A stretch of 64,000 bases of DNA from Candidatus Hopanoidivoransaceae bacterium (GTDB lineage: Bacteria; Actinomycetota; Acidimicrobiia; Acidimicrobiales; Hopanoidiivorantaceae). Shown here piece by piece: positions 52,101 through 64,000 of the stretch (the first letter of the stretch is position 1; each line of letters opens with the position of its first letter). The stretch spans positions 1,641,214 through 1,705,213 of the forward strand of contig OZ241989.1 of assembly GCA_965204495.1 (NCBI GenBank). The letters run 5' to 3'. The notes beneath the pieces were generated by a model. It searched no databases and was not told the DNA's origin. It saw nothing but the letters and a program-made list of their open reading frames with translations. A program made the translations under genes and the position numbers.

Positions 52101-55100
52101 TCGTCAGCTTCCAGCCTCTCCAGCGCAGTCAAATTCTGTATCTCGCTAGGCAAAGTCCCATGCACTATCGTGAATTGGCCCCCTACCGTACTCCTGGTGG
52201 CACTTATCACGAAATCGGTCACACGCCCGCCCGTCACCGTGATACCGATCCAATTCTGAACCAGCCTGTCCGAAGCCGTGCCCGTGCCCCACTCGACAGA
52301 AGCATCCCCCCACTCGCGAAACGCGTGAAACTCGGCCAAATCCCGGTTCGCTTCAAACCCGGCGAAATGATTCTGGATAGCCACCAGAGTCATGCAATCC
52401 TCAGCCAGATCGTTGTTAGCCCCCGTGACTCTCGGATTAGTCGTGAGATTCACGAAAGTCCCGTCCGTGCAACCCGCATTGCTCAAAAGCGGTATAGCCG
52501 TGCCCGACACCGCCCTGCTCACAGACAAAGTAATAGTGCCGGTAAGAGTGTCGCCCCCGCTAGAGGTATAAGGCACCGAAATCGCAGCCGTGCCCGCACC
52601 AGAAACAGCGGTGATGGGAACAACGCAGCCGCTTTGCGTGCCGAGGCTTATCAAAGCAGACGACTCCGCAATAGCCCCGCAAGAAATCGCATAATCGCCG
52701 TCCGCCGCGTAGCTGCTCGCATCCAGCACCAGCACCCGCCCCGCCAGCACCGACAAACTCCCCGCGCCTGTCGTGGGCGGAGCCGTGAAAACAATATCCG
52801 AAAGCGGGCGAATCAGCACAGAAATCACCCCGTCCGCAGAACCGCCCCTGCTGGAGCCATACGGCACAGTGAAACCAGCCGTGCCGCCCGCCCCCGCCCT
52901 AGCAGTAGCAGTAAACGAACAGCCGTTCCCGCCAGAATCGCGCACCACGCTCTGCCACAAAGACGAAACGCTCTCAGCATCACCGCAAGAAATCGTGTAG
53001 CTGCCGTCTGAAGCGTAAGCCGAAGCGTCAATCACGATGCTCTTCGTAGCCTCCACATTCAAACCCGAAGGAAAGCCCGCCACAGGAGCAGTAAAGACGA
53101 TATTAGCAGCCGCGCCCACAACCACAGGCACCACCCCGCTGACCGTAGCCCCCGTCTCAGAAGTATAAGGCACCGTGAAACTAGCCGCGCCCAGCGACGA
53201 GCCAGCAGTAACCCTGAACTCGCAAGTATCGCCCACACGCGCCACCGACGCGATCCTGGCGGTATTAGCAGTCGAATCGCCGCAAGTGACCCCCCAGAAA
53301 CCGCCATCAGTAGCATAGCTAGAAACATCAAACACCAAAGTCCCGCCCGCGCCGATAGCCAGAGCAGAAGGAGCCGTGAAAACCAGATTCCGAGCAGGCC
53401 CCACGCTCACAGGAATCACAGCCTGCCGAGTGTCGCCGCCAGCAGAAGAGTAAGTGATAGTGAAACTAGCCGAACCCGAAGCAGTGCCCGAAGAAGTGGT
53501 GGCGGTGAAAGTGCAAGAACTGCCCGTATGAGCAACCGAAGCCAGATTGCTGGTGAGCGCGCTGGCATCCGAACAAGTCAAAGCATAACTGCCGTCCGCC
53601 GCGAAACCGCCAGCATCAATCTCCAAAGTCCTGCTGCCAGCCTCAATGCGCAGATCGGCAGGAGCGGTATAGGCGATAATGCTGTCAGTGCCGATGTTTA
53701 TAGTGAAAGTGCCTGTAACAGTCGCGCTGCCCGTGGAAGTGAATTCCACAGAAAAAGTAGTATCGCCCTGATAGGACTGGGCGAGAGCGTTTTCGGGATC
53801 AACAGTGAAAGAACACCCATCGCCGGAAGTGCTGCGGGTTACTGTCATCCTGACGGCATCCACGCCTGTGGCATCAGCGCAGGTCACCGTGTATACGCCG
53901 GTTTCTGTGATCTGATCCAAGGCGTCAATCACCAGCGTGTAGTTCCGCCCAACCGTCAGAGTAGGCAGCGCAGTGAAAGCGAGAGTGCTGTCGGGGCCGA
54001 TATTGACAGTGAAAGTGCCTGTAGTCGTGGCACCGCCCGAAGAGGTGAAAGGCACAGAGAAAGTAGTGTCGCCTTGGTCGGCCGGCATCAAGGTGTCTAC
54101 GGGATCTATCGTGAAAGAACAGCTGCTGCCAGTGTGGGTAACAGTCATCTTCGTGGTATCCACTCCGGTGGCATCGCCGCAGGAGAAGGTGAAGCTGCCG
54201 TCGGTCGCGTAGCTGGAAGCGACAAAAGTCCGAGTGCGGTTCCGGGCCACTGTCAGAGTTCCCGGGTCGCTTAAGACAATGTTGGAGTCCGCGCCGATGT
54301 TTATTGTGAAAGTGCCGGTAGTGGTCGTTCCGCCTGTGGTAGTGAAGAGCACAGAGAAAGTCGTATCGCCTTGGTTGGCCGGCGTCAAGGTGTCTACAGG
54401 ATCAACGGTGAAAGAACAGCCATCGCCTGAAGTGCTGCGAGTGACAGTCATCTTGGTGGCATCCACGCCTGTGGGGTCAGCGCAGGTAACCGTGTGCCCG
54501 GTGTTCTCAGAGACATGATCCAAAGCGTCAATAACCAGCGTGTAGTTCCGCCCCACTGTCAGAGTAGACGGAGCAGTGAAAGAGAGATTGGAATCGGGGC
54601 CGATATTGACAGTAACCGTGCCCGTAGTGCTATGCCCGCCGCCTGAGGTGTAAGGAATGGTGAAAGTAGTATCGCCTTGGTTGGCCGGCGCCAGAGTGTC
54701 AACGGGGTCTATCGTGAAATTGCAGCTGCTGCCAGTGTGCGTAACAGCCAGCTTGTTGGCATCCACCCCGGTAGCGTCACCGCAGGTAACCGTGTAGGCG
54801 GGGTCCTCAGTCACATAGCCCAAAGCGTCTATCGCCAAAGTCTGATTCCGCCCGACCGTCAAAGTTCCAGGAGCGGTGTAAGCGACAGTAGATTCAGGGC
54901 CTACTTCAATGCTGATAGTGCCGTTCTCGGTGTCGCCGCCAGTTGAAGTGTAAGGCACCACGAAGCTAGCCGCGCCCTGAACTTGCTTGGGCGTTACAGT
55001 AAACACGCAGCCGCTGCGCGACACCGACATCAGCTCTGTGGTGTCAATGCTGGTGGCGTCCCCGCAAGTGATCGTGAAGTCGCTGTTAGCCTCAGTCGCG

Positions 55101-55927
55101 TAGTCCAACGCGTTGATCGTCTGCGTTCGGTTCGTGCCCACCTTCAACCCAGAAGGCGCGGTGAAGGTGATATTTGAAGCAGTGATCACACGCACAGTAA
55201 CAGTGCCCGTGTGGGTGTCGCCCCCGCTAGAGGTATAAGGAATCGAAATATTGGCGGTGCCCGTGGTGGAGCCGGCATTTACAGTAACATCGCAGCCCTG
55301 CTGATTGGAAAGGCTTATCAGGGCGGACGACTCGGTGATAGTCCCGCAAGTAATCGTGTAGCCGCCGGTGGAAGGACTGCTGTCAGAAGCATAAGTGTCC
55401 ATGCTGAGATTAAGCGAACCGCCGGCTTGGATAGTCGGGGCAGGCGAAGGCGCATTGAAAGTAATATCAGAGTTTCGAACGCAAAGTCGCCAAGTGCCGA
55501 AATCCCTCGTGCCACCACCTTGATGACCCCTCACCTCTCGGCCGCTGACTGCTAGATTTTCGCAGCCAACAGAGGCTGCAGTTTTGGCAGTTACCGTGAC
55601 TCTACAGCGGTTGATAGATACCGTAAACCTGGAAGTTGAAGGAACACTAACCGAACACTGAACATGCCAGTCTTGACCAGGAAAGTTTCTAGCATTAGAG
55701 CTGGTAGCGGGCACATCAACAGTTCTGCTTCCCCCTGGTGCTAATGTAAAACCACCGGCCCAACTGCCTCCGACGTATCCTGCCGCAGGCTGAGACACAG
55801 CCACCGAAACAGCAAATAGCAAAGCCGCGAACAAAGCCGCCGACACGAGCGAAGCGACAACCTTGCGAAGAGCCCGCCGTGCCAGCCGCGCATCACACTG
55901 GGGGGGGGTCTTACGCAGCGACTTCAT
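37199..55927 (-). CDS. Giant (6,242 aa) secreted/surface repeat protein: ~55 two-Cys ~97-aa modules + internal plant-type LRR block + Pro/Thr linker + unassigned C-terminal domain
   Basis: A single uninterrupted ORF of 18,729 nt. It has an N-terminal hydrophobic signal/anchor (VVASLVSAALFAALLFAVSVAVS). The module consensus read by eye is FTAP..L.VGRNRT..IDA..Y......YTI(S/T)C(G/A)DATG.....L.SV.R....C.FT(I/V).P.......G..TF.VPYTS.GG....G..TV.IGP.S.I. Confidence 0.85.
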   Translation of the reverse strand: MKSLRKTPPQCDARLARRALRKVVASLVSAALFAALLFAVSVAVSQPAAGYVGGSWAGGFTLAPGGSRTVDVPATSSNARNFPGQDWHVQCSVSVPSTSRFTVSINRCRVTVTAKTAASVGCENLAVSGREVRGHQGGGTRDFGTWRLCVRNSDITFNAPSPAPTIQAGGSLNLSMDTYASDSSPSTGGYTITCGTITESSALISLSNQQGCDVTVNAGSTTGTANISIPYTSSGGDTHTGTVTVRVITASNITFTAPSGLKVGTNRTQTINALDYATEANSDFTITCGDATSIDTTELMSVSRSGCVFTVTPKQVQGAASFVVPYTSTGGDTENGTISIEVGPESTVAYTAPGTLTVGRNQTLAIDALGYVTEDPAYTVTCGDATGVDANKLAVTHTGSSCNFTIDPVDTLAPANQGDTTFTIPYTSGGGHSTTGTVTVNIGPDSNLSFTAPSTLTVGRNYTLVIDALDHVSENTGHTVTCADPTGVDATKMTVTRSTSGDGCSFTVDPVDTLTPANQGDTTFSVLFTTTGGTTTTGTFTINIGADSNIVLSDPGTLTVARNRTRTFVASSYATDGSFTFSCGDATGVDTTKMTVTHTGSSCSFTIDPVDTLMPADQGDTTFSVPFTSSGGATTTGTFTVNIGPDSTLAFTALPTLTVGRNYTLVIDALDQITETGVYTVTCADATGVDAVRMTVTRSTSGDGCSFTVDPENALAQSYQGDTTFSVEFTSTGSATVTGTFTINIGTDSIIAYTAPADLRIEAGSRTLEIDAGGFAADGSYALTCSDASALTSNLASVAHTGSSCTFTATTSSGTASGSASFTITYSSAGGDTRQAVIPVSVGPARNLVFTAPSALAIGAGGTLVFDVSSYATDGGFWGVTCGDSTANTARIASVARVGDTCEFRVTAGSSLGAASFTVPYTSETGATVSGVVPVVVGAAANIVFTAPVAGFPSGLNVEATKSIVIDASAYASDGSYTISCGDAESVSSLWQSVVRDSGGNGCSFTATARAGAGGTAGFTVPYGSSRGGSADGVISVLIRPLSDIVFTAPPTTGAGSLSVLAGRVLVLDASSYAADGDYAISCGAIAESSALISLGTQSGCVVPITAVSGAGTAAISVPYTSSGGDTLTGTITLSVSRAVSGTAIPLLSNAGCTDGTFVNLTTNPRVTGANNDLAEDCMTLVAIQNHFAGFEANRDLAEFHAFREWGDASVEWGTGTASDRLVQNWIGITVTGGRVTDFVISATRSTVGGQFTIVHGTLPSEIQNLTALERLEADDHMLSGNIPSWLGSMSALNDVNLSDNNFSGPIPSELGNLSSLQFLSLHRNELSGSIPSQLGSLSNLRQLNLDSNQLTGSIPSQLGSLSSTAFTHLNLSGNRLSGSIPSQLTSLTAMRNLLLSNNLLTGSIPSGIGSLTSLVTLDLEGNRLSGSVPAGVSSLTNLFRLDLSNNQFTGAIPAAVGNLVTLNPAGNRFTGVRQVYICGNYFTGALPTGLQQTASSQYVLQDYPISEGFNPVACQDAMAVPASGDIVFAPPLVVPVQAGGESVYVNAASYFTGSDYAATCADATGPAIDDSKLTITRSGCSYYVTAPAPSPISRAFENVTFNVPYTQVSAGATQVNGVVTVRILPASSIAFNAPQNLFVSASSTVVVDASGAATDGPYAITCGDATGVDSTKFSSVVRSTSGNGCMFTIASTASTGDGTFTVPYSSSGGATGTGTFTVNVNNIVYTAPTDLSVVAGRSIEITASSYVTDGANTFTCADATNIDSTKITSVVRNNCVFTVTTAAAAAGENVAITVPVTSSGGATRSIVIPMSVTPVSDIVFTAPAAVKIGAGNTKTIDVGAYAADGSYTISCGFQQSTRHARLTSVAVNGCRFTLAAGSAQGAATLVVDYTSTGGDTQSGTVNLSIGPPSSVSFTAPAVPAVGRNRTLVINALDYVRENTAYAVSCSDAFDISTLPNIGFGLIRYRMSVARSTSGDGCAFTVDPLNTLPSNRWGNAIFRVVFTSEGGSSTTGTFTVNIRGDVAILFTDPGALAVPRNRILRIDATDHVEDGANTITCADATGFDSDKMAVTRRGCVYTVNPVNSLAANLLGETTFSAMFTSSGGSSTTGTFTVDIGPDTNIRTTNIPGTLFFTNSVKVNLSRFATDGDYEIFCTSVSATAGTISNRAANSCVFDYSPSFLGRFNVSFRSAGGSTTTASINVAQSLGTYLRSFSFPAQSVAAGRTIEIEASRHISLSTANTYFCFEPTDVDGKISVVLRGCRYIITAGSRQGAASFNVNFSITSGEVRSAAVAVNVGPASSIVFNAPAGLQVGRNRTLAIDATDYATDSSYTITCGDATGVDSTKLTSVSRNGCVFTVDPINSLVAGSQGDTSFTVPFTSSGGDTATGTFTVNIGPDSTITYTAPGALEIGRNFTLVIDASDYVSEISGSGYTIACSDAAGVAANRMAVARTANTCEYTVAPVGNSEANAADRLAPALQGDTTFAITFASTGGHTITRTLTINIGPDSDPMFTAPATNPAVGASLTRAVDVSSYATDGNYTISCGTISTTDADITLGTQTGCSVMITSVATTPQTADITIPYTSSGGGSTTGTLTLDVGVASNIVFTAPTGLKVGINRTQTIDASDYAADGGNTISCGTATNVDTTRLASVVRDTSGNGCGYTITPISTLTPAQQGTANFTVPYTSSGGDTQNGVIAIEVGPASNIVYTSPGTLSVARNLTLEIDASGYAADNAAYTISCGDATGVASARLAVTHTGSSCDFTIDPVDALAPGDQGTTTFTIPFTSDGGATGTGTVTVNIGPDSALTFTAPGTFTLGRNRTLVIDASAAISGENAAYTVSCADATGADATRMTVTRSTSGDGCSFTVDPVDTLAVGSQGDTTFSVAFSSTGGATATGTFTVNIGPDSTITANIPPATGAGRLQVARNLTLEIDASDYVAETSGSGYTISCSDARSIHSRLTSVARTASTCTYTIDPVNSATSGTATFVVTFTSTGGHSIVRTITVNVGPNSAITFTAPPTSGANRLLVGRNRTLAVDAGSYASETSGSGYTITCGDAVSIDTARLASVTHTGSSCSFTVTPVSSLSSSLQATNATFTVPYASSGGATADGIISVKVGPDSTITYNAPTLARGSNLRTFTIDASDYVSETSGSGYTISCGTATSVDTTEITSVTRLSNSCRYRIVLNGTQGSTGFTVPYTSTGGHAISRAVQITVGAASAIVFSAPASNPAVAASRTLTLDVGSYAADGSYTISCGTITESSALISLGNQTQGSCSIPIIAGTSTGTAAISVPYISSGGATLTRSITIDVGGASNISFTAPSDLKVGINRTQTINALDYASDSGYTITCGTATSVDTTRLTSVVRDASGNGCGYTITPISTLTQSQQGAASFTVPLTSDGGDTENAVFSIAVGPASTITFTPPSALLVPKNRTLVVDAAPYAVEANPTNYAISCGDATSIDTVELQSVTRTANTCTFTITPKNVAGSASFTVPYTSEGGHSVNGAIPVTVGTDSTITYSSPGTLTVGRNRTLTIDASGYVEEIASSGHTITCSDASGVDNTKLTSVTRTANTCSYTITPITTLTPALQGDTTFSITFTSSGGHEITRTITVNVGPDSTIVFTPPASNPAIAASRTRTIDVSSYAADGSYTISCGAITESSALISLGSQTGCSIPVTSGSSMGTATISIPYRSSGGHTLTSSLSIDVGAASSIVFTAPTGLKVGTNRTQTINALDYASDGGYTITCGTATNTGANVPTSGTVALASVVRDSSGNGCGYTITPTATQGTATFTIPYTSAGGDTSSENISITVGPPSTIVYSSPGTLRVGRNQTLEINASGYVSDNSAYTITCADATGVIATRMAVSRTANSCTFTIDPVDALAPANQGTTTFTIPFTSDGGHSITRTITVNIGPDSNLTFTAPSTFTLGRNRTLVIDALAAISGENAAYTVSCADATGVDANKMTVTRSSSGNGCSFTVDPVDTLATGSQGDATFSVPYTSTGGASASGTFTVNIGPDSTITANIPPATGANRLLVARNLTLEIDASDYVTEASSGYTISCSDARSIHSRLTSVARTANTCRYTIDPNNFAFPGAATFVVTFASTGGHSIDRTITVNVGANSAITFTPPPTTGANRLLVGRNRALVVNAGSYARETIGSGYTITCGDATSIDTTRLASVTHTGSSCSFTVTPVSSLSSTLQATNATFTVPYSSTGGATANGTISVKVGPDSTITYNAPTLERGNNLRTFTIDASDYVSETASSGYTISCGTATSVDTTEITSVTRLSNSCRYRIVLNGTQGSTGFTVPYTSTGGHAISRAVQITVGAASSIVFSAPSSNPAVAASRTLTLDVSSYATDGSYTISCGTITEFSALISLGAQTGCSIPITAATSTGTAFISVPYISSGGATTTRSISIDVGVASNIQFTAPSDLKVGINRTQTINALDYATDSGYTITCGTATSIDTTKLTSVARDSSGNGCGYTITPISTLTQSQQGSANFTVPLTSDGGDTENAVFSITVGPASTITFTPPSPALSVAKNRTITVDVSGYAVEANPTNYAISCGDATSIDTVELQSVTHTGRSCTFTINPKNVAGSASFTVPYTSEGGHSVAGAISVTVGPDSNIVYTPPTGLRVARNRTLEIDATDHFTESSTYTVTCGDATGIDNTRLTSVARTANTCTFTVDPVDTLAAGLQGNTTFTVPLSSTGGHARNALFTVNVGPDSNIVFAAPTGLKVGRNRTLAINALAAVTENPAYTVTCADATGVSANRMTVTRSSTGSRCVFTVDPVDTLATGLQGNTTFAVAFTSTGGATASGTFTVNIGPDSTITYNAPTGLLVGRNRTLTIDASGYVSESDSNNTITCGDATAIHSRLTSVARTANSCSYTIDPNNFATVGTATFAIAFTSDGGHTRTETISVEVGPDSNIRFTAPPTSGPNRLRIGRNLTLSIDALDYVNENAAYTVTCGDATGVDAARLTVTHTGSSCDFTIDPVDTLAQSLQGNTSFTIPYTSDGGATATGRITVNIGPDSAITFTAPTGLKIGRNRTLVIDALAAVSGENAAYTVSCADATGVDANRMTVTRSSSGSRCSFTVDPVDTLAVGSQGDTTFVVAFSSTGGATASGTFTVNIGPDSAIVYTAPAGLQVGRNRTLSVDLSNAATDGSYTVTCGDATNVHSRLSSVTRPDAQASPCVFAAAPRTTASLGTATFRVPFTSDGGATSTGTVSIAISQPSTIVFTAPDPALKIGINRTRTIDALDYVRDGNYTITCLDATGVDSTKLTSVTRSSSGNGCGYTINPISSLTQSQQGDATFTVPYRSAGGHVLNQEFTIGVGPASTIVYTAPVGANALTVGHNRTLTIDASSYATDGSYTISCGDARSIHARIDHITRNGCSFTITPVSGMTGAATFTIPYSSDGGHTRDGQVSVTIGAASNIVYSAPSGIVIPVSTARTIDVGSYAADGSYAISCGDATGVNASRLASVTHTGSSCSFEITAAANQGATSFVVPYRSAGGAALSGTISLSVGPASSIVFTAPSGLDVHVGETLLVHANDYASDGPYSLQCADATNRSASLTSVVRTANTCDFTITPGSSTGTGTFNVPYTSSGGATHTGTISVNISPQSTITFTAPTGLSVAAGRQITVDASTAADTGYTVSCGDATAVNPRIASVSRTGCSYAVRAGSIAGSASFTIPFTSTGGATLNSQIAITIGPRSSIAFTAPTGLSVQIGSTLTIDASDYAADSAYTITCGDATGVPSVFASVARTANTCNFVVTPGTSTGSGSFTVPYSSSGGATRNGSITVAVTPTSSIVFAPPPISGPDRLRIGAGNTRTISLASYATDGPYSITCGNATATEPAKLTDIHRNGCRYTITAAATAAQGNTTFTLTYTSSGGNTNNASFTINIGPASDIVYTAPADITLQANSAQGIDLSSYATDGTGNDAYTIGCLDATDIDPEISSVTRNGCVYTIRAGSTPGEADFHITYTSTGGDTHLATVHITITPAPVEPEERPAGPIQPIDPPARRPTPPPPTTTTTTTIPDPSRPTTTLEPDQPGPRWNTLTAQQGGTTPGQIRQAFNLGSTQTIYTWNTARQTWTRATRSSQAIPAGTRVSFRTEEAVTNREMRTSNLGGGTTRMRLTTGWSTLSIPQGITRTDDTDFLLDPTLTDCRNQQGIIAIASYSTRSRRWSISLPCHPTAQRRLTTGENAPYRPLMSIAPADTTYIFTRTRQPLTIRWNEDTQTYQVFQSIFTR
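51470..52500 (-). other. LRR block inside the giant ORF: LRRNT-like cap plus ~9-10 plant-specific-type 24-residue LRRs
   Basis: Approximate residues 1150-1485. The sequence reads ...NWIGITVTGGRVTDFVIS... then LTALERLEADDHMLSGNIPSWLGS / MSALNDVNLSDNNFSGPIPSELGN / LSSLQFLSLHRNELSGSIPSQLGS / LSNLRQLNLDSNQLTGSIPSQLGS, and so on. Confidence 0.8.
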
Positions 55928-56050
55928 TTTGACCTCACGCCGTGCCAGCCGCGCATCGCACGGGGGGGGGTCGCAGACGGCGATTTCATGCCAGCCTCAA
56001 GCCGCGCCAGCCGCGCATCGCACGGGGGGGGGGTGTCGTAGATGACTTTT
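55870..56050 (-). repeat. Triplicated ~62-nt start/leader unit of the giant gene, each copy with a poly-C (minus strand) tract: C9 (55900-55908), C9 (55962-55970), C10 (56024-56033)
   Basis: Minus-strand reading gives three units. Unit 1 is ATGAAGTCGCTGCGTAAGA-C9-AGTGTGATGCGCGGCTGGCACGGCGG. Unit 2 is ATGAAATCGCCGTCTGCGA-C9-GTGCGATGCGCGGCTGGCACGGCGTGAGGTCAAAATGA. Unit 3 is AAAAGTCATCTACGACA-C10-GTGCGATGCGCGGCTGGCGCGGC. Confidence 0.9.
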
Positions 56051-56079
56051 TCCTATAGGGGATTAATCTCATGTAAGGC

Positions 56080-56108
56080 ATTATAGCAATCAGAAGTATG
56101 TTTGACAC
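56080..56108 (-). promoter_or_regulatory. Candidate sigma-70-type promoter for the giant gene (GTGTCA-17 nt-TATAAT)
   Basis: Minus-strand TATAAT lies at 56085-56080 and GTGTCA at 56108-56103, in the only AT-rich stretch upstream of the leader repeats. This is sequence pattern only. Confidence 0.4.
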
Positions 56109-56170
56109 AGCATGACAAACAAAAAAATTGTGAGATTTTTACAGGTCAAGAATCCCCCCCCGCCATATCG

Positions 56171-56354
56171 CCAGCCGCCGACCCTAGCCCTACCCAGCCG
56201 CCGACCCTAGCCCTACCCAGCCGCCGTGCCTAGCCCTACCCAGCCGCCGTGCCTAGCCCTAGCCAGCCGCCGAGCCTCGCCCTAGCTAGCCGCCGAGCCT
56301 CGCCCTAGCTAGCCGCCGAGCCTCGCCCTAGCTAGCCGCCGAGCCTCGCCCTAG
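56171..56354 (+). repeat. 23-bp tandem array x8 (ccagccgccgagcctcgccctag family) with stepwise variant gradient
   Basis: The units, read directly, are 2x ccagccgccgaccctagccctac, ccagccgccgtgcctagccctac, ccagccgccgtgcctagccctag, ccagccgccgagcctcgccctag and 3x ctagccgccgagcctcgccctag. Confidence 0.9.
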
Positions 56355-56599
56355 CTAAGCGGCTGCGCTCCACAAGATGATCCGGGAGCTTCCCCAGCAG
56401 CGCAGCAGCTTCCATGCCAGTGTGGATGTGCGGCGCATCGGCTTGAAACAGCGCAGAAGACGCCTTCAGTTTCGCTTTCGGCGAGCGTGTGTTTTCTGCA
56501 GGTAACCTGCAAGAGTTCCCTAGAGGGTAGAGTTGCGGGGTGACGCTGACACGGCATCTGGTCTGCTGTCTTGTGGCTGAACCGCATAGTCAACAGCGA
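56355..56599 (+). repeat. Island scaffold element, full copy I: modules M1 (56357-56421), M2 (56422-56478), M3 (56479-56530), M4 (56535-56599)
   Basis: The same modules recur in whole or in part at 59025-59116 (M4'), 59623-59712 (23-mer + M1), 60127-60183 (M3), ~61429-61586 (diverged M2-M3), 62288-62586 (23-mer-like + M1-M3) and 63448-63572 (M3-M4). Confidence 0.85.
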
Positions 56600-56925
56600 A
56601 GCGGGCGGGCATATGACTGCCGAGTGCTGCTCAGAATTCTAGAAGGCTGTATTAGGGTTTTGCTGTTTCAGACTTGACAATCTCTCTTTTATGTGCTAAA
56701 GTGATCATGTGAAGAAAATGTGCCACAGCAAAATAGAGGAGAAGTTCCTCTTTCTGACCCGCAGCAGAGCCAATCTGCTGTGTCTGGCTTGCAGCATGGT
56801 GTGGAAGTTGAAGCAAGAAGTATCAACGAAGCAGTGCCGAGGGGTTGCCACGCAATTGACAGTTGTGGTAGAGATAACTGCCAGTGTTTGTATATTTGTA
56901 CAAAGATGTCTACAGAAAGGTTCGG

Positions 56926-58764
56926 ATGATGACTAGACTGCAATTTGACATTACTCCGTTTCTTGAACGAGAGGAGGGTCAGACATTTGAACGCAAATCG
57001 CTGTTTGAGGGCAAGCCGGGAAGCAAAAGCTCTCGGGATCGCAGAGTTATTCGCGATCAGATCGCCAGGTGGGTTGCTGGGTTTGCCAACGCTGACGGCG
57101 GCGTATTGATTCTGGGAATTGAAGACGATTTCTCTATTACTGGGCATGATCTAAGACCTGCCGACTTAAATACTCTTCTCAAAGTACCTGAGGATCGCTT
57201 AGATCCGGCACAAGAAAAAGGGTTTGTGATAAATATAGGTGAGTACGAACTCATTGTTTTTGATGTGCGAGCTTCAGATACTGAAGTAATGGTGATTGGC
57301 GACGGTTTCCCTTTGCGCATTGGTGACACAACTACGGAAGTGTCAGTTGAAGAAATTCGTTCAAGTAAGTTTTCCAGTATGTCTGAAAGCTGGTCAAGTC
57401 GCTCTTCATCTGGTTTGTTAGAGGATTTGGATGAAGAACTTCTGGGAGAAGCCAAAAAATCAGCTGGAAAAGAAAGTTGGACTGATGAAGAGTATCTGTT
57501 GCGTAGCAGTATGGCTCACAGAAGAGGACGACAAGTGATACTAAGAAATGCAGCAGAGTTGTTATTTAATCCATATGGCGGGAGTCACACAAACGCTGGT
57601 ATTCGAATTTTCCAGGTTGTTGGGACTGAACTACTGAGCGGAACAGAATACAATGCGAAAGAAATTGATCGTATTGAAGGGAACCTTCCCACGATTGTAG
57701 AAGAAGCAAGTTCAAGAATTTTGAATTTGCTTAAATCCTCAACGCCAATAATGGGTGGGAAATTTCGAGAAGTGCCTGAATATCCTTATTTTGCTTGGCA
57801 AGAAGCACTTGTCAATGCCGTCCTCCATAGAGATTATGCTGTTGAAGGGCAGTGCATAGAAATTCATTTATACAATGATCGTATCGAAATAACAAACCCT
57901 GGTGGGCTAGTTAAAGATGTTGATTTCGAAAAACTGATAAATTTGGAACGTGTTCACCGCAGTCGCAATTCTCTTATTGCCAAAGCAATGACTGATTTAG
58001 GTATAGTTCGCGACCAGGGTGAAGGAATTCCCCGTATGTTTTCTGAAATGGAGGATGCATTTCTCCCGAAACCGATAATAGAAACAAGTAATTTAGAATT
58101 TAAAGTCACTTTGAGGAATACTCCCACTTTAACCGCAGCTGACAAAAAATTTATTTCCCGACTAGGAAATTCACAATTTTCTGATGTAGAATTTAGAGCT
58201 TTGTTGCAAGCTCATCGCTATGGAAAGGTGGATAACGCATATTTGAGAAACCGATGTGGCCTTGATACTCTGAAATCAAGCAAACTTTTGAGCGGACTTT
58301 GTGATCAAAAATTTCTTAAGCTTCACCCACACGGACCCAATAGCTACTATACTCTCTCTGATTCTCTAGTTTCGCAAAACTATACAAATAATCTACCGCA
58401 GGAGAACGACGACAGAAATATGTCCAAAGCAGACAATGTTGCTTCAGATTCTGGTGAGACTCCCTTTAATGAAAGCAAACTTTTTGAGTCTCTCAGGGGT
58501 GACATAGACAATCTTGGCAAACGCCCAAGACGAGAAAAGCTGCGTCCGATAATCCACAAATTATGCTCACAGAATAGATGGATGACTTTAAATGAATTAT
58601 CTTCAATTTTGGGATACAGCCGAGGCGGGAATTTGAGAGATCACTTAAATCAAATGATAGATGAAGGTCAGATTGAACGGCGCTTTCCTCACAACCCCAA
58701 ACACCCTAAACAAGCATATCGCGCTACAAACACATTCTATGAAGATCCTAAGCAGGATTCATAG
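56926..58764 (+). CDS. AlbA_2 (Schlafen-like DNA-binding) + HATPase_c_4-type ATPase protein with C-terminal wHTH-like region
   Basis: Motifs EGQTFERKS...IARWVAGFANADGGVLILGIEDD and EALVNAVLHRDY are present. I placed the start at ATGATG 56926 (AAAGG 6 nt upstream) rather than the GTG at 56884. The gene is visibly AT-richer than the rest of the window. Confidence 0.7.
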   Translation: MMTRLQFDITPFLEREEGQTFERKSLFEGKPGSKSSRDRRVIRDQIARWVAGFANADGGVLILGIEDDFSITGHDLRPADLNTLLKVPEDRLDPAQEKGFVINIGEYELIVFDVRASDTEVMVIGDGFPLRIGDTTTEVSVEEIRSSKFSSMSESWSSRSSSGLLEDLDEELLGEAKKSAGKESWTDEEYLLRSSMAHRRGRQVILRNAAELLFNPYGGSHTNAGIRIFQVVGTELLSGTEYNAKEIDRIEGNLPTIVEEASSRILNLLKSSTPIMGGKFREVPEYPYFAWQEALVNAVLHRDYAVEGQCIEIHLYNDRIEITNPGGLVKDVDFEKLINLERVHRSRNSLIAKAMTDLGIVRDQGEGIPRMFSEMEDAFLPKPIIETSNLEFKVTLRNTPTLTAADKKFISRLGNSQFSDVEFRALLQAHRYGKVDNAYLRNRCGLDTLKSSKLLSGLCDQKFLKLHPHGPNSYYTLSDSLVSQNYTNNLPQENDDRNMSKADNVASDSGETPFNESKLFESLRGDIDNLGKRPRREKLRPIIHKLCSQNRWMTLNELSSILGYSRGGNLRDHLNQMIDEGQIERRFPHNPKHPKQAYRATNTFYEDPKQDS

Positions 58765-58808
58765 ATACAACCCATAATCCCCAATAGTCGTGATATTTGG
58801 AGAGTCCT

Positions 58809-59033
58809 ATGTCTGAAAGATTATTGGCTCGTATCCCCGAAGCTGCTGGTCGTATCCCCGAAGCTGCTGGTCGTATCCCCGATGCTGTTGGTCGTATCCC
58901 CGATGCTGTTGGTCGTATCCCCGATGCTGTTGGTCGTATCCCCGATGCTGTTGGTCGTATCCCCGATGCTGCTGGTCGTATCCCCGAAGCTGCATTGACA
59001 CCCCAAATGCAAAATATTTCTATAGCGGGGTGA
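58809..59033 (+). CDS. Possible 74-aa heptad-repeat micro-protein (MSERLLA-[RIPEAAG/RIPDAVG]x8-LTPQMQNISIAG)
   Basis: ATG at 58809 is preceded by GGAGAG 4 nt upstream. The body is the 21-bp tandem array, and the stop TGA lies inside module M4'. The coding status is unresolved because the opposite strand is also open. Confidence 0.35.
   Translation: MSERLLARIPEAAGRIPEAAGRIPDAVGRIPDAVGRIPDAVGRIPDAVGRIPDAAGRIPEAALTPQMQNISIAG
58827..58994. repeat. 21-bp tandem array x8 (ggtcgtatccccgaWgctgYt)
   Basis: The units were read directly. The outer units carry gaagctgct and the central four gatgctgtt. It is the same unit as the 16-copy array at 63573-63908. Confidence 0.95.
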
Positions 59034-59116
59034 CGCTGACACGGCATCTGGTCTATGCCGCTCCTTGCGGCTCGTCTGCGGCTTTGCTGGTGAGACGTCA
59101 GAGCCTCAACAGCGAA
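59025..59116 (+). repeat. Module M4' (conserved M4 ends gcggggtgacgctgacacggcatctggtct ... caacagcgaag with a different internal core)
   Basis: Direct comparison with 56535-56601 and 63505-63569. Confidence 0.75.
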
Positions 59117-59120
59117 GAGT

Positions 59121-59282
59121 TCAGAAAGAAGATTTTTTGGACTCCACTCTGAACGCCTGAACGAGTTCAGGGTCGCTCGTGTCGATCTGGGCGTTGCGGA
59201 GGACTTCCTCAACGGTGACCTCTTGGTTTTTCTTCGCTCTAGTGGCTCTGGGCCGGGAAGTGGCTTTGGATGCTTTCTTCAT
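59121..59282 (-). CDS. Small basic hypothetical protein (53 aa)
   Basis: Not in the track in this frame. ATG at 59282-59280 is preceded by AGAGAGGAAACAACCA (a strong SD). The product is MKKASKATSRPRATRAKKNQEVTVEEVLRNAQIDTSDPELVQAFRVESKKSSF, with stop TGA at 59123-59121. Confidence 0.5.
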   Translation of the reverse strand: MKKASKATSRPRATRAKKNQEVTVEEVLRNAQIDTSDPELVQAFRVESKKSSF

Positions 59283-59622
59283 TGGTTGTTTCCTCTCTTG
59301 TTATAGGAGACAATACTAGCATAATTATGACCAACGGCGTGAAAATCGCAAAAAGTGTGATATAGCGACGGGTGTGCCCAAGAATTTCGTCGCGCTCGTC
59401 TTCTTCCGCCACTCTCCTTACGCGCCAAAATCTCGCCTTGTATCGCATCTGAAGCCCAGCGCGAACTAGTGTAGCAGGACCTGCTGGGTTGCGGCGCGCT
59501 TTTCGGCGGTGGGTTTCGCTGGTTGCGGTTGTGTGGCTGTCCACGGCAGACTAGCCGCTGTCGGGAGCCACCGCAGGGTTTCGGCTTGTGAGCATCTGCC
59601 GCTTGCGCTGCCAGAAACACCG

Positions 59623-59712
59623 CCAGCCGCCGAGCCTCGCCCTAGCCAAGCGGCTGCGCTCCACAAGATGATCCGGGAGCTTCCCCAGCAGCGCAGCAGC
59701 TTCCATGCCAGT
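59623..59712 (+). repeat. One 23-mer unit + module M1
   Basis: ccagccgccgagcctcgccctag + ccaagcggctgcgctccacaagatgatccgggagcttccccagcagcgcagcagcttccatgccagt. Homology to copy I stops abruptly after ...gccagt. Confidence 0.85.
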
Positions 59713-59852
59713 AGCGTGCGAAGAAAAGGTTGCTTTTCCACTGAAAATGTGATATGGTTCTAGACATGAACAGATGCGTAGCCGTGAAGAGCGGAGCCAC
59801 CCGCCGCGTAGCGCGACGCAGCTACGCAGACGGTGCTAAAAGGAGCATCTCA

Positions 59853-60014
59853 ATGAAAATAAAAAGAAAAAAGGCATCGTCATCAGAACAGGCACCACTT
59901 CCGCGCGAGTTTCGTGCTGAAGACATTGTGCAAATCCCTGTTGGGGGCACAGGCAAGCCTTCACCCGATTCGCCTTTATACAACAAGTGGAAGGAGCAGA
60001 ACGGCAAAAAGTAG
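59853..60014 (+). CDS. Small hypothetical protein (53 aa)
   Basis: ATG at 59853 is preceded by AAAAGGAG 7 nt upstream. The product is MKIKRKKASSSEQAPLPREFRAEDIVQIPVGGTGKPSPDSPLYNKWKEQNGKK. The track ORF 59754-60014 is the same frame with an unlikely upstream start. Confidence 0.5.
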   Translation: MKIKRKKASSSEQAPLPREFRAEDIVQIPVGGTGKPSPDSPLYNKWKEQNGKK

Positions 60015-60126
60015 TTCTGCTCTGCTTCACAACCTGAAACCGAGACAGCAGGCACGCATCTGACGTGCCCGTATCACTCTGCTTGTCTTGGGAATTCAAG
60101 CAATTCACTTGCCGAGAACACCTGTT

Positions 60127-60183
60127 CGCCGAGCGTGTGTTCTCAGCAGGCGACCTGCAAGAGTTTCCTAGAGGCTAAGTTTG
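60127..60183 (+). repeat. Module M3 (solo copy)
   Basis: cgccgagcgtgtgttctcagcaggcgacctgcaagagtttcctagaggctaagttt. Confidence 0.8.
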
Positions 60184-60215
60184 CGTTTTGGGTTTTGTAG
60201 CTGGGTGTAGCAGTC

Positions 60216-60392
60216 ATGGCAAATAAATCTTCGAGTCCGCTGAATTTCGCGCCGTCTACTATTTTCACGGGCGATAATCTGCCTGTGATGCGTGGGATGA
60301 ATTCTGAGAGTGTGGATTTGATCTATTTGGATCTGCCTTTCAATAGTAAAGCTAATTACGCGGCACCTAAGCGGCTGCCAAGCAGCTTATGA
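60216..60392 (+). pseudogene. 5' fragment (58 codons) of an N6/N4 DNA methyltransferase
   Basis: MANKSSSPLNFAPSTIFTGDNLPVMRGMNSESVDLIYLDLPFNSKANYAAPKRLPSSL*. The N-terminal pattern of beta-class amino-MTases is present, with the DPPF motif degraded to DLPF. The reading frame ends about 50 aa into what should be a protein of more than 250 aa. Confidence 0.65.
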
Positions 60393-60814
60393 AGCAGGCG
60401 GACAAACAAGCGACGTAGCCGATTGAGTAGCAATGGACCAAGCTGCCATCCGAAGCCTATGGCTTGATCGGTCAACGCGTCCTTCATGTCTTTGTAGTGT
60501 TCGTTGGTTTCCCATGCGACAGTGACATGCGACGGCACAGGGTGACCGTCGCATTTGGGGTAGATATTGAACTGATGGAATGTTCCGGCTGTTACTGCAA
60601 CGACCCCTACAATTTGCGATTTGTCTGTTTCGGTTGTGCGCCGATAGTTCTTCAGAGCTTCTTTTGGTGTGTCTACAGTTGAGAGGTACAGAGACAACTT
60701 TTTCTCTTTCCTAGCGGAAAAAACTGTCTCCCTCAGATCGCTGATATTACCAGATGGACAATCCCATGTTTTAACTATCCGGTAGAGTCTTGCGTCGCCG
60801 TGGAGTTCTTCCAT
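60356..60814 (-). CDS. Hypothetical protein (152 aa), distal gene of an overlapping pair
   Basis: ORF-track entry. AAAGG lies upstream of the ATG. No family was recognised. Confidence 0.5.
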   Translation of the reverse strand: MEELHGDARLYRIVKTWDCPSGNISDLRETVFSARKEKKLSLYLSTVDTPKEALKNYRRTTETDKSQIVGVVAVTAGTFHQFNIYPKCDGHPVPSHVTVAWETNEHYKDMKDALTDQAIGFGWQLGPLLLNRLRRLFVRLLHKLLGSRLGAA

Positions 60815-61188
60815 TCCGATACCTTTCGAGAAAGCGTCTTCCAGCCTTCGCCTTTCAACGTATGCTGACCTTTTCCATGTGGCGCTAAGTCGTGAAGTAT
60901 CCTATGCTCTGCTTGTCTGGAAGGCAGATGCACATCTACACGCAAAGAATCAGAAGGATTCCGCCACACCAAAAGAATGTTGCCATCCTCTGCTGGCTGC
61001 ACCAGCGGGCAACCTATGTCGTTCTTGTCCAAGATGTTAACAGTGAAGTCTTCCAAAAAGCCTTCCAGTCCTTCCAGTCCGACAGGGTGGACGCCCCCAT
61101 CCTGATTCGGATCCGCGTCAATATAGCGTTGCAGGTTTTCTGTCATGTCGCGGACACGGTTGTCGTCTAGGTCTTTACCGGTAGTCAT
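60775..61188 (-). CDS. Hypothetical acidic protein (137 aa), proximal gene of an overlapping pair
   Basis: I placed the start at ATG 61188-61186, preceded by GAAAGAGAGGAAAAA (a strong SD). The track start 61224 has no SD. Confidence 0.5.
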   Translation of the reverse strand: MTTGKDLDDNRVRDMTENLQRYIDADPNQDGGVHPVGLEGLEGFLEDFTVNILDKNDIGCPLVQPAEDGNILLVWRNPSDSLRVDVHLPSRQAEHRILHDLAPHGKGQHTLKGEGWKTLSRKVSEWKNSTATQDSTG

Positions 61189-61428
61189 TTTTTCCTCTCT
61201 TTCAGTGTTTTGTTGCGGAGTCATCTGATTCCACTATAGCCTATGTGCGATGCAGTCTCCTATCCACTAGCGGTTCCGGCTAATGTTTCTGCTCTGCTCA
61301 TGGTTCAAGTATACATTAACTTTTTCGCGTTTGCAACGCATGCACTTGAAATTTGCCAATTCAGGAAATTTCCTCATTCTGGAACCGCCCCAGCGAAAAA
61401 TCGCTATCGCAGCAGCGTCTGCCGCCTC

Positions 61429-61586
61429 CGTCGATGTGCGCTGGGGGACCACCAGCCCAGCGGCGGCAGGAAACCCGGCGGCGAGTGCGCCCGTTCGTTG
61501 AAGCCGCGAGGCCCTGCCGCGTGGATCTCCCTGCTGCTGCAAGACACCTGTCAGCTTCGGCGAGCGTGTGTTCACTGCGGGTGACC
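61429..61586 (+). repeat. Diverged M2-M3 copy
   Basis: gtcgatgtgcgctggg...cctgtcagcttcggcgagcgtgtgttcactgcgggtgacc versus gtggatgtgcggcgca...ccttcagtttcgctttcggcgagcgtgtgttttctgcaggtaacc. Confidence 0.45.
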
Positions 61587-61709
61587 TTCTGCCGTTCACC
61601 AGAACGAACAGATAAACACCAACCTGCCGCGTTCCTGCGCCAGTCTGCTATCATAGATGTCATGTCTCCAAACCTCAATCCCCTGAATCAATGAAAGAAG
61701 GTTAGCACG

Positions 61710-62288
61710 ATGGAGCCAGCAGCCGTGCAGTCGGATCTAGCAGATAGGGCAGGGGAAACATCCGCCAAAACCTCGTCCCCGACTACGGGACACAGCGCCC
61801 CTATAGTGATTCCAGAGAACAATAGCCTTCTGTCCGACGGCTGGGCAGGAGCTATGATGCTTGCCAGCGAATTCAGGCCACTGCTGGAAGAAACCGAGAT
61901 GCTTGCCAGCGAATTCGTGTCGCTGCTGGAAGAAACCGTGACCCGTGCCGGCGAATTCGTGTCGCTGCTGGAAGAAGACGCAGAGTCAGAAGAGATCCCC
62001 GCCCTAGAGCATCTGCCTGCTTTTATGGTGTCTGTCGGCATAACCTCTTCAAAGTCTTCTGTCCCTTTGCCGTATATTTTCGAAGGCGGGCACGGCAGGG
62101 TCTGTTTCACATGGCTCCGCGAAGGAAAAGGCGATTGCTACCTTTACGCGAAACTGGACAGCATGAAAGCGAAATGGGTGGAAAGCGACAACGGCGAACA
62201 CATCAGAACCGAAATTCTGGATGTTAGCTGCGGTTCAGAAGACTGGGCTTCCCTGGCCCGATATCTGCGGGCAGCCTATGCTAAATGA
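61710..62288 (+). CDS. Hypothetical protein (192 aa) with 3 x 14-aa (42-bp) internal repeat
   Basis: GAAGG lies upstream of the ATG. The repeats MLASEFRPLLEETE / MLASEFVSLLEETV / TRAGEFVSLLEEDA span 61857-61982. Confidence 0.55.
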   Translation: MEPAAVQSDLADRAGETSAKTSSPTTGHSAPIVIPENNSLLSDGWAGAMMLASEFRPLLEETEMLASEFVSLLEETVTRAGEFVSLLEEDAESEEIPALEHLPAFMVSVGITSSKSSVPLPYIFEGGHGRVCFTWLREGKGDCYLYAKLDSMKAKWVESDNGEHIRTEILDVSCGSEDWASLARYLRAAYAK

Positions 62289-62586
62289 CCCCCGCCAAGC
62301 CTAGCCCTTGCCAGACGGCTGAGCCTAGCTCTCGCCTGAGCCGCCGAGCCTAGCCCTTGTCAGACGGCTGCGCCTAGCTCTCGCCTGAGCCGCCGAGCCT
62401 CGTCCTCGCCAGACGGCTGCGCTCCACAAGATGATCCGGGAGCTTCCCCAGCAGCGCAGCAGCTTCCATGCCAGTGTGGATGTGCGGCACATCGGCTTGA
62501 AACAGCGCAGAAGACGCCTTCAGGTTCGCTTTCGGCGAGCGTGTGTTTTCTTCAGGCGACCTGCAAGGGTTTCCTAGGGGCTGAGT
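62288..62586 (+). repeat. Island scaffold element: degenerate 23-mer-like repeats (62288-62410) + M1-M2-M3
   Basis: It is near-identical to 56357-56530 apart from a few substitutions. M4 is absent. Confidence 0.85.
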
Positions 62587-62646
62587 TTATATATTAATAA
62601 ATAAAAATCTGGCAAAGATGAAGTCATAAGAAGTGACGAAAATCTT

Positions 62647-63390
62647 TTAATGTTCCAAAACATCTAAAACTGCTTCAGGGTGCACTCGCCACAAAACTTT
62701 ATGCTTCCTGTCTTTAAACACCACAGGTCTGCACCCTGCCTGTTCCCTCTGAGGTGATATTTCTATCCAACGATCAGCCTTAGCCGCAGAAGATACAGAG
62801 TTCAGAAATTCCGTATCATTTCCATTCGGCATATCATGTTTGCTGAATTGGGAACCAGCCGACGCTATCCTGCGAACTCCATCATTGAACCCCATCTGCA
62901 GCGAAAGACATAAAAGAGACTTCCAAAAATCTTGCTTTTCAGAGAGCACTCCAGCGTAGAACACCAGCATCAATGTCTCCTCGGCAGCTAAATTCGGACA
63001 GTCCTGCGCATACTCCAACAGCGCACGTTCAGGAGAAGACAGCCAAGTTCTGCTGTCTATTTGTCGCGCCGAAATTCGCAACGTTTCGCTGTCTTCACGA
63101 TGATGCCAAATGAAATAGCCGGCCGCGGTTCCCTTGTCATCCATATCCGCAGAAACGGAAAGCCCAGCTTTCATCGGCATTCCAGCCTCCAGCAAAGCGG
63201 AATCATGCGAGATTCTCCTCACGATGCTGCCATAAAACCCATCCAACCTCTCCGCGCGCGACAATCCCTGCAGAGGTGTCCACGCCAAGCCATTGCGACG
63301 CCAACTGTCGGATTTTATCGTCACATGACTATCGTTGCCTGTTTTCACCACTGTATCTGGTTGTTCTGCGAACATCTGCTTGGTGCTCAT
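62647..63390 (-). CDS. Hypothetical protein (247 aa); weak resemblance to AbiEi-type antitoxin C-terminal region
   Basis: ORF-track entry. Only the stretch WLSSPERALLEYAQD recalls the (S/T)PERTLLD motif, so the family call is tentative. Confidence 0.45.
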   Translation of the reverse strand: MSTKQMFAEQPDTVVKTGNDSHVTIKSDSWRRNGLAWTPLQGLSRAERLDGFYGSIVRRISHDSALLEAGMPMKAGLSVSADMDDKGTAAGYFIWHHREDSETLRISARQIDSRTWLSSPERALLEYAQDCPNLAAEETLMLVFYAGVLSEKQDFWKSLLCLSLQMGFNDGVRRIASAGSQFSKHDMPNGNDTEFLNSVSSAAKADRWIEISPQREQAGCRPVVFKDRKHKVLWRVHPEAVLDVLEH

Positions 63391-63447
63391 GTTTACCAGT
63401 ATAGAGTGCGTTTCCTGAAATTACAACTCTAGAATAGATTTTCCGTT

Positions 63448-63572
63448 CCGGCGAGCGTATGTTTTCTGCTGGCGACCTGCAGGGATTTCCTATAGGGTGG
63501 GGTTGCGGGGTGACGCTGGCGCGGCTTCTGGTCTGCTGTCTTGTGGCTGAACCGCATAGTCAACAGCGATTG
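63448..63572 (+). repeat. Island scaffold element: M3 + M4, joined directly to the 21-bp array
   Basis: ccggcgagcgtatgttttctgctggcgacctgcagggatttcctatagggtggggttgcggggtgacgctggcgcggcttctggtctgctgtcttgtggctgaaccgcatagtcaacagcga. Confidence 0.85.
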
Positions 63573-63908
63573 GCTCGTATCCCCGATGCTGTTGGTCGTA
63601 TCCCCGATGCTGTTGGTCGTATCCCCGATGCTGTTGGTCGTATCCCCGATGCTGTTGGTCGTATCCCCGATGCTGTTGGTCGTATCCCCGATGCTGTTGG
63701 TCGTATCCCCGATGCTGTTGGTCGTATCCCCGATGCTGTTGGTCGTATCCCCGATGCTGTTGGTCGTATCCCCGATGCTGTTGGTCGTATCCCCGATGCT
63801 GTTGGTCGTATCCCCGATGCTGTTGGTCGTATCCCCGATGCTGTTGGTCGTATCCCCGATGCTGTTGGTCGTATCCCCGATGCTGTTGGTCGTATCCCCG
63901 ATGCTGCA
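63573..63908. repeat. 21-bp tandem array x16 (ggtcgtatccccgatgctgtt), essentially perfect
   Basis: 336 bp = 16 x 21. The first unit starts gct and the last ends gca. It is followed by the same tail (ttgacaccYcaaatgcaaaatatttctata) as the 8-copy array. Confidence 0.95.
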
Positions 63909-64000
63909 TTGACACCTCAAATGCAAAATATTTCTATATTTGCAAAGACTTTATCAGGTTTTCGGTAAAACAGCAACCCTTTCTTCCAGCACCCCGAAGG

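Follow-up and report, generated by a model that had tools for sequence, protein, structure and literature searches.

A strain-variable defence gene island with repeated internal borders upstream of a giant leucine-rich repeat gene in an uncultured member of the Acidimicrobiales

Introduction

The window analysed here is a stretch of 64,000 nucleotides (nt) from Candidatus Hopanoidivoransaceae bacterium, of the actinobacterial order Acidimicrobiales (GenBank assembly GCA_965204495.1, contig OZ241989.1, positions 1,641,214 to 1,705,213 of the forward strand). At its right-hand end, from 56.1 to 64 kb, short genes are separated by partial combinations of the same repeated sequences, and the locus raises the question of what these repeated borders are and how they came to lie between the genes. 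A first-pass annotation made from the sequence alone, whose labels are kept below, divided them into a 23-mer array, modules M1 to M4, a 21-mer array and a tail, and proposed a dedicated, possibly novel site-specific cassette scaffold.

The region is a strain-variable (flexible) island of defence and toxin-antitoxin (TA) type genes upstream of a giant leucine-rich repeat (LRR) surface-protein gene. We consider it fairly probable that its repeated borders are relics and minisatellites that would supply homology for RecA-type turnover, with illegitimate joins trimming the products.

Strain variation at the island

The giant LRR/Ig (immunoglobulin)-repeat gene encodes 6,242 amino acids (aa) and lies at 37199-55927 on the minus strand; it is oriented with its 5' rather than its 3' end towards the island. 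The island starts just upstream of the predicted promoter of this gene, a promoter-like site (GTGTCA-17-TATAAT) being located at 56108-56080 on the minus strand. The GC content was 0.49-0.52 in the island and 0.56-0.61 in the rest of the window. Core genes identified in the window by Pfam and NCBIfam scans include those for acyl-CoA metabolism, ABC transporters and RmuC, and the single tRNA is at 22482.

The island was compared with the whole window by self-BLAST and motif mapping. Its four tandem arrays and direct-oriented dispersed modules were far above chance expectation; every module copy lay on the same strand, and none was found outside 56.1-64 kb. The copies mapped where the first-pass annotation had placed them, including the five positions of the M3 anchor (5 found, 0.00 expected), and its description of the island as accessory, AT-richer and made up of short gene cassettes with repeats at their borders was borne out. 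The modules of its full 'master element' are real, but they are never contiguous in that order, the element having been put together from two overlapping partial copies.

Sister-strain loci were obtained from European Nucleotide Archive (ENA) assemblies, and the comparison covers four versions of the island (the window, L016, L015 and the L002 type). The size of the island was ~3 kb, at least 8 kb (the window) or ~11 kb, depending on the version. At six loci (L001-L004, L008 and L009) only ~3 kb with three genes separate the giant LRR gene from an enoyl-CoA hydratase (ECH) gene. L016, the true counterpart of the window, is collinear with positions 55938-59467 at 97-100% identity from the giant LRR gene on, and its content differs thereafter. 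It is located in the same genome as L007, ~480 kb from ECH; in L007 the ECH gene is followed directly by another giant gene. On L015, a short contig, M1 is joined via 52 unique nt to the Schlafen-type (612-aa) cassette, at a different point. A relative with 72% identity in ECH (L010) has neither the island nor the modules.

One cassette of the window (62601-63443), which holds a gene for a 247-aa protein, is 98.3% identical to L002, and the 98% homologue of the protein is P0001. L016 contains duplicated pieces of its own (15144-15234 and 16492-16582, 96.7% identical; 15846-15899 and 20251-20304), which are gene ends or fragments. Next to the orthologous giant LRR gene each of the four versions has an arrangement of its own, and the gain, loss and reordering of cassettes between strains, as proposed in the first-pass annotation, is thereby established. 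The island has the fixed chromosomal position, the gene content varying among close strains, the defence/TA cargo and the atypical composition of a defence hotspot.

Origin of the repeated borders

The 23-mer and M1 were traced to a gene. In L016 an intact gene on the minus strand, here called gene X, has the core and M1 as its 3' end and terminates in ...GEAAALLAKLPDHLVERSRLARTRLGG*. The window contains three minus-strand copies of this end: copy 1 (core and M1, 56332-56421), which translates as MEAAALLGKLPDHLVERSRLARARLGG*; copy 2, with one 23-mer unit, at 59622-59712; and copy 3 (…LVERSRLARTRLGG), at 62388-62475, which is nearest to the intact X of L016 (89%). By self-BLAST, 56334-56421 matched 59625-59712 at 98.9% and 62388-62475 at 95.5%. 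The three share the minus-strand reading MEAAALLGKLPDHLVERSRLAR(A/T)RLGG and correspond to the last 26 codons of X only, the relic end of this 184-aa gene being …LVERSRLARARLGG*. Their identity to intact X is 82-89%, and all have one deletion form and one M1/M2 junction.

The open M4'-M1' frame was also screened against 1.84 billion protein representatives, with four weak matches. One (P0275) is full-length X, 184 aa (L016 15288-15842), and another (P0274) is a 34-aa product with an internal-deletion form identical to that of M1; the other two are spurious-looking open reading frames (ORFs) over M2-M4 in sister strains. The intact X in L016 and the P0275 and P0274 matches identify 23-mer plus M1 as what is left of the 3' end of a small gene, with its last 23 nt amplified in tandem; it is not the non-coding module that it had been taken for.

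Gene X had no Pfam match and no PADLOC toxin match. The 184-aa product has an N-terminal MGLFS(R/K)KDD motif, an acidic low-complexity linker and a conserved tail running to ...RLGG*. Its diglycine end recalls ubiquitin-like modifiers; no family was matched, and conjugation enzymes were not found nearby.

Tandem arrays were called by Tandem Repeats Finder (TRF). The 23-nt array (8.1 copies, 56170-56355) is the amplified last 23 nt of the gene-X relic, reading as codons ...ARARLGG*, and the first 15 nt of the 23-mer are part of a 24-nt coding repeat within the intact gene X of L016. Two 21-nt arrays each precede a tail: one of 7.9 copies (58829-58993) with a 32-nt tail, together 58829-59024, and one of 16.0 copies (63570-63906), which with its tail occupies 63570-63938. 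The array and tail at 58829-59024 are 96% identical to 63743-63938 (self-BLAST). The array that had been described as '23-mer-like' within 62288-62586 is present, but a 49-nt period with 2.7 copies fits it better (62292-62422; core-like units with 24/25-nt subunits). Copy numbers differ between strains: the 23-mer is present 8.1 times in the window, 8.9 times in L016 and 2.2 times in L002, and the 21-mer 7.9 and 16 times in the window, 5.7 times in L016 and 3.3 times in L002. With this between-strain polymorphism of the kind that defines variable number tandem repeats (VNTR), the 21-, 23- and 49-nt arrays are unstable minisatellites.

The 21-nt arrays can be read in frame as RIPDAVG heptad repeats (58809-59033, 63570-63938 and L016 11869-12063). 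A putative 74-aa RIPDAVG ORF at 58809-59033, overlapping the array of 7.9 copies, has a Shine-Dalgarno site and an ATG. Its L016 orthologue also has both (64-74 aa range); the copy at 63.5 kb is without that start.

Modules M2 to M4 are, as far as can be read from the sequence, lineage-restricted intergenic DNA that is apparently non-coding. In the first copy M2 (56422-56476), M3 (56477-56530) and M4 (56531-56599, ending ...tcaacagcga) follow each other. M2 has a second copy at 62476-62523, within an M2-M3 copy at 62476-62588 whose M3 brackets the cassette of the 247-aa gene on the left; the right bracket is the M3 of an M3-M4 copy at 63447-63569. The pair 56244-56523 and 62292-62577 (M1-M3) is 87% identical over 286 nt (E 8e-85), and the pair 56479-56599 and 63449-63569 (M3-M4) is 88% identical, both by self-BLAST. 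A variant, M4' (59025-59116), has the first 30 nt and last 10 nt of M4 and a different middle, the 30-mer being repeated at 59025-59054 with 100% identity. M3 occurs again at 60125-60182 (copy 2) and, diverged and with the last ~10 nt of M2, at 61540-61587 (copy 3). The latter had been annotated as 'diverged M2-3' from ~61429 to 61586; against shuffled controls ~61540-61587 was significant, but 61429-61540 was not above the controls.

Junctions and recombination

The joins between the window and L016 are of several kinds. At 59467 a clean indel of 392 nt has no more than 1 nt of overlap. At 59630, the left join of relic copy 2, the junction is located at a 9-nt microhomology, GCCAGCCGC. A ~296-nt deletion between the imperfect 8-mers TTCGCCGA and TTCGGCTA produced the 'isolated' M3 at 60125. 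The end point of M1 differs among copy 2 of the window, L015 and L002. These heterogeneous junctions, comprising the clean indel, the 8-9-nt microhomology joins and the strain-differing ends of M1, are marks of illegitimate recombination.

Exchange among the copies left a different trace. The divergence between the window and L016 is 0.9% over 56357-59467 but reaches 5 of 54 sites within M3 copy 1 (P ~1e-4), where L016 carries the states of the other M3 copies. This clustering, together with the matching states, points to a gene-conversion tract formed by homologous exchange among the copies. Two variable segments are located between direct copies of M3, namely a 2.35-kb segment (60183-62530), which is absent from both L016 and L002, and the 843-nt cassette at 62601-63443.

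We propose that an ancestral block (23-mers, M1, M2, M3, M4, 21-mers, tail) would have been segmentally duplicated in direct orientation, its copies then serving as portable homology. RecA-type recombination between copies, either intrachromosomal or with DNA of sister strains, could insert, delete, duplicate or convert the bracketed segments, by events including unequal crossing-over and single-crossover capture of circles. Illegitimate deletions mediated by microhomology would later trim genes and modules, leaving the partial 'shuffled' combinations. We infer both the order of these events and the action of homologous recombination, rather than of a recombinase in trans, behind the bracketed insertions.

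Several points weigh against this reading. The break after '...tcaacagcga' occurs at the same nucleotide with three continuations (56599, 59116 and 63569), which is more regular than random illegitimate joining would give, and module copies are direct-oriented in every strain. The M3 brackets, 58 nt at ~88% identity, are short for efficient RecA action, and a site-specific event fits them also. A recombinase acting in trans is possible, the DNA covered here being that of the window and the sister loci. With just four island versions the history is under-determined.

The main alternative origin of the relics, which we regard as unlikely, is decayed tandem accretion: integrative elements would have inserted site-specifically, one after another, into the 3' end of gene X. 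Each would have brought an X-like attP and left a partial X end (23-mer plus M1) at its left border, and the integrases would have been lost or lie elsewhere. The relics do begin at 56334, 59625 and 62388 with the same extent, delimiting units that are 3.3, 2.7 and at least 1.6 kb long; L016 has one relic and an intact X 5.8 kb apart; and units 1 and 3 share M2-M3 beside the relic, as related attP arms would. Such accretion fits the logic of tycheposons, in which partial target copies accumulate and newer elements drive older ones inward. Integrases, excisionases and their fragments were, however, absent from every unit and from three island versions (the window, L002 and L016). No sequence is conserved on the other side of the relics, and so there is no common second arm. 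The relics, with their single deletion form and single M1/M2 junction, are copies of one another, and the left junction of relic 2 is a microhomology join. In a viral-contig search neither gene X nor the core was found on any viral or satellite contig.

A target at the ECH gene was also considered. The modules were first suggested to be att duplications of the ECH 3' end by the ending ...LVERSRLARTRLGG* of ECH in L001-L004, L008 and L009. The idea was ruled out: most ECH orthologues end ...IIKATKSDT*, only a subset being fused to a module-derived tail, and in the L007/L016 genome the island is ~480 kb from ECH.

Comparison of these six loci (e.g. L002 9667-9714) with L007 10860-10882 showed that the last 6 codons of ECH (…IIKATKSDT*) were replaced by 14 codons from a gene-X relic (…IIKLVERSRLARTRLGG*). 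The tail swap accompanies a large rearrangement that places the giant LRR gene and the island beside ECH.

Modules M2 to M4 as possible functional units

A coding role for M2-M4 was rejected. A minus-strand frame is open over 85 codons, but the differences between copies are non-synonymous, and the 1.84 billion proteins gave just 4 weak matches. Structured RNA and known RNA families were likewise rejected: no Rfam family was matched by the modules, and the fold energy of M1-M4 was the same as that of shuffled sequences (z = -0.31 and -0.03 for the two strands).

The modules could instead be selected regulatory units (terminator, promoter, operator or protein-binding iterons), recombination being a side effect; we think this quite improbable. 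In its favour, the M2/M3 junction scored as a weak hairpin with a T-run at the start of M3 in three copies, and 14 terminator-like sites were found where 7.6±2.6 were expected. M3 is located 34-120 nt upstream of the plus-strand genes at 60216 and 61710, and it adjoins the 3' ends of minus-strand genes. The window and L016 do not differ in M1, M2 or M4 (100% identity), and promoter-bearing 87-nt repeats recur in the island of the relative L005. Promoter-like matches, however, were not enriched (11, with 7.2±2.8 expected). The GCAGG-N3-CCTGC palindrome of M3 is not kept, its pairing being lost without compensation in 4 of 7 copies, and a hairpin arm is missing in 2 of the 5 M3 copies. The identity of 100% does not exceed the level seen in adjacent DNA at this divergence, and M1 is a dead gene end. 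A terminator role for the M2/M3 junction is possible and unproven.

The repeat in L005 is 87 nt long (8333-8419 and 14887-14973, 98% identical), stands before different small genes and carries a promoter-like site, TTGACA-17-TATAGT. In L006 a 303-nt piece from within the neighbouring gene, which is of the ECH family, is present twice (9563-9865 and 11716-12018, 98% identical) with razor-sharp ends, and its copies bracket an AbiEi-AbiEii toxin-antitoxin pair. The L006 duplication appears to be a recent case of the bracketing seen with M3 in the window, and the duplicated gene ends of L016 show a similar tendency in the lineage.

Searches for a recombinase and for mobile elements

Integrase and transposase domains were absent from the window ORFs in Pfam and NCBIfam scans, in agreement with the first-pass annotation. 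No recombinase domain was found in six frames of 59100-62300, and no recombinase or remnant was found in three versions of the island (the window, L002 and L016). The island has no inverted-repeat termini, and its junctions are without target-site duplications. Beyond the island no module copy was found, either in the rest of the 64-kb window or in ~300 kb of loci from sister strains and relatives. Searches of 72,556 plasmids and 50,697 phages by blastn gave no match to the modules, and the M3 and M1 patterns were not found in IMG/VR, GTDB genomes or JGI metagenomes.

These results bear on the proposal of a dedicated site-specific cassette system, in which the M3 palindrome, the end of M4 or both would be the sites and the recombinase would lie outside the window. 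Some features speak for it: the same break after '...caacagcga' in three contexts, variable segments between direct M3 copies, uniform module orientation in all strains, and strain-variable cassette content. The sharp homology breaks that had been stressed, though, prove to be the indel, microhomology and strain-differing joins described above. Neither the 64-kb window nor the ~11-kb and ~3-kb sister islands contain a recombinase. The modules, in which an inverted repeat (M1) and a palindrome (M3) had been noted, fold like shuffled sequence and show no compensatory change. Cassette genes point in both directions, and promoter-like sites are predicted for some of them; many cassettes break off within a gene; and in the DNA seen the modules occur at one locus only. 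Every testable feature failed, and with the relic nature of M1 and the conversion in M3 added to these points we judge such a scaffold very improbable.

Two more unusual arrangements are very doubtful: cassette exchange without a cis recombinase, acting at M3 or M4-end sites through an enzyme in trans, or the use of ~60-300-nt relics as a RecA-driven analogue of attC for defence genes beside a phase-variable giant adhesin gene.

That the modules are the ends or remnants of a known insertion sequence (IS), miniature inverted-repeat transposable element (MITE), prophage or plasmid, as repetitive, AT-richer DNA beside accessory genes might suggest, is extremely improbable and largely refuted, since inverted termini, target-site duplications and copies beyond the island were lacking in the window and sister loci and the plasmid, phage, IMG/VR, GTDB, JGI and Rfam searches gave no match. 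The first-pass annotation had itself said that a match to a known IS or MITE family would count against its proposal; no catalogued mobile element was matched. It had said the same of modules confined to one locus and invariant between strains; in the DNA seen they are confined to one locus, yet they vary between strains.

Cassette genes

The cargo of the island is a defence/TA 'junkyard' in which several genes are truncated (a methyltransferase, a PDC-M32A-like gene and a 174-aa gene). Genes are present on both strands and consensus promoter-like sites are predicted upstream of several, consistent with the first-pass description of genes in either orientation, often with their own promoter.

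The first gene (56929-58764, plus strand) encodes a Schlafen AlbA_2 and HATPase_c_4 protein of 611/612 aa, assigned from Pfam and PADLOC/PHROGs and 99% identical in L016. Its relatives outside the sister strains are at most 56% identical and taxonomically scattered; the family is horizontally scattered and defence-associated. A 53-aa gene at 59121-59282 (minus strand) is 100% conserved in L016. The remnant of a 174-aa membrane-protein gene at 59239-59467 (minus strand) is truncated by the 392-nt deletion ending at 59467; the gene is intact in L016. Gene 'Y' (53 aa, 59853-60014, plus strand) has only the C-terminus WKEQNGKK* and the 3' flank in common with the L002 and L016 versions.

The truncated methyltransferase reported earlier was confirmed by PADLOC MTase_II and PHROG matches as the 58-aa N-terminus of a DNA methyltransferase (60216-60392, plus strand). 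A two-gene cassette follows (60356-61224, minus strand), for which PADLOC identified a 152-aa PDC-M32B-like protein and a 149-aa protein matching only the C-terminal part of PDC-M32A. The ORF at 61710-62288 (plus strand) is a 192-aa orphan gene; it contains an in-frame 42-nt repeat of 2.9 copies at 61856-61976 (…EFVSLLEET…).

The 247-aa orphan gene (62647-63390, minus strand) had no Pfam match. Homologues of its product with 68-73% identity are located directly upstream of AbiEii toxin genes, and because of this position the protein is probably an antitoxin-type partner of AbiEii. The 'AbiEi-like' label rests solely on the AbiEii synteny; the AlphaFold model has a pLDDT (predicted local distance difference test) score of only 39.

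Other repeats in the window and at the giant gene

A tandem unit of 62-64 nt was found at the 5' end of the giant gene (window 55875-56032, L002 12654-12888, L016 ~8950-9080) and also at a different giant gene in L007 (~10980-11100). On the giant-gene strand each unit has an ATG and then a run of 8-10 C, and the number of units is strain-dependent, from 2 to 4 (e.g. 2.5 and 3.7). The arrangement looks like a slipped-strand, phase-variable start region of the giant gene.

At 13626-26595 a dispersed intergenic motif, AAAAAGAYRYRCCGYNSCCCGCC, is present in 13 copies (0.01 expected), mostly as convergent pairs 50-80 nt apart between core genes; none is in the island. It may represent a repetitive extragenic palindromic (REP)-like or bidirectional-terminator family. 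A 132-nt inverted repeat (18080-18211 and 19013-19144, 95% complementary), the arms of which include this motif, flanks 801 nt with ORFs lacking a Pfam match.

Discussion

The island is of a kind already known, a flexible island or defence hotspot, here in a poorly studied lineage; its anatomy is instructive, and a new mechanism was not demonstrated. Flexible islands and defence hotspots at fixed positions have been described as additive islands of aquatic bacteria (PMC10872708) and as hyper-variability hotspots (bioRxiv 10.1101/2024.10.15.618418). The present island resembles them in its fixed position by conserved genes, strain-specific content and lower GC, in the enrichment of defence, TA and restriction-modification remnants, in its turnover between very close strains and in the lack of obvious mobile-element machinery. 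It differs in that its internal borders are marked by relics of a resident gene and by minisatellites, and in that it abuts the promoter of a giant adhesin-like gene and not a tRNA.

The tandem integration islands of Prochlorococcus, the tycheposons (bioRxiv 10.1101/2020.12.28.424599), are likewise divided into cargo units by partial copies of a target gene 3' end, contain degenerate remnants and differ between close strains by small gene sets. In the window three partial X 3' ends delimit units, but they are paralogous; the relics are mutual copies and not independent att scars, and junctions show microhomology. A tRNA target is lacking here, as are tyrosine recombinases and their fragments, and an element-encoded integrase was absent from the window, L002 and L016 islands.

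Three other known systems share some features with the island. Integrons and clusters of attC sites lacking integrases (CALINs) hold short, often orphan genes between related repeats, with TA genes common; integrons encode intI, and attC sites are folded imperfect palindromes. Short, often orphan genes divided by related repeats, and TA genes, are found here as well. The island differs in having neither intI nor any other recombinase and no attC-like folded palindromes; its cassettes are not co-oriented and promoterless, genes being in both orientations with some predicted promoter-like sites, and its repeats, 50-290 nt long, are gene relics whose partial combinations vary.

Orphan cassette arrays downstream of the polymorphic toxin genes rhs and cdiA are shuffled by homologous recombination, which is the accepted mechanism for them. 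As in those arrays, variable small genes follow short repeats with homology to a portion of a resident gene. The relics here consist, however, only of the conserved C-terminal tail of X and lack a variable toxin domain; X bears no toxin signature, no toxin constant region is repeated before toxin-tip/immunity pairs, and the array is upstream of the giant gene rather than downstream.

Minisatellites of VNTR and mycobacterial interspersed repetitive unit (MIRU) type in Actinobacteria are intergenic arrays with 21-64-nt units, the copy number of which differs between close strains. The arrays of the island share the intergenic position, unit size and strain-dependent copy number. They differ in lying within a larger repeated block and in having been duplicated along with it, and one of them is derived from the terminal codons of a gene.

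For a small-genome, uncultured actinobacterial lineage of the Acidimicrobiales, the locus is a sequence-level example of the turnover of defence genes without visible mobile-element machinery. It also carries a caution, that repeated borders are not automatically new recombination sites; a new mechanism would be indicated only if a recombinase acting in trans or circular intermediates were found. Relic gene ends and minisatellites as a source of homology, with illegitimate joins as the means of trimming, may help in the interpretation of 'hotspots' in metagenome-assembled genomes.

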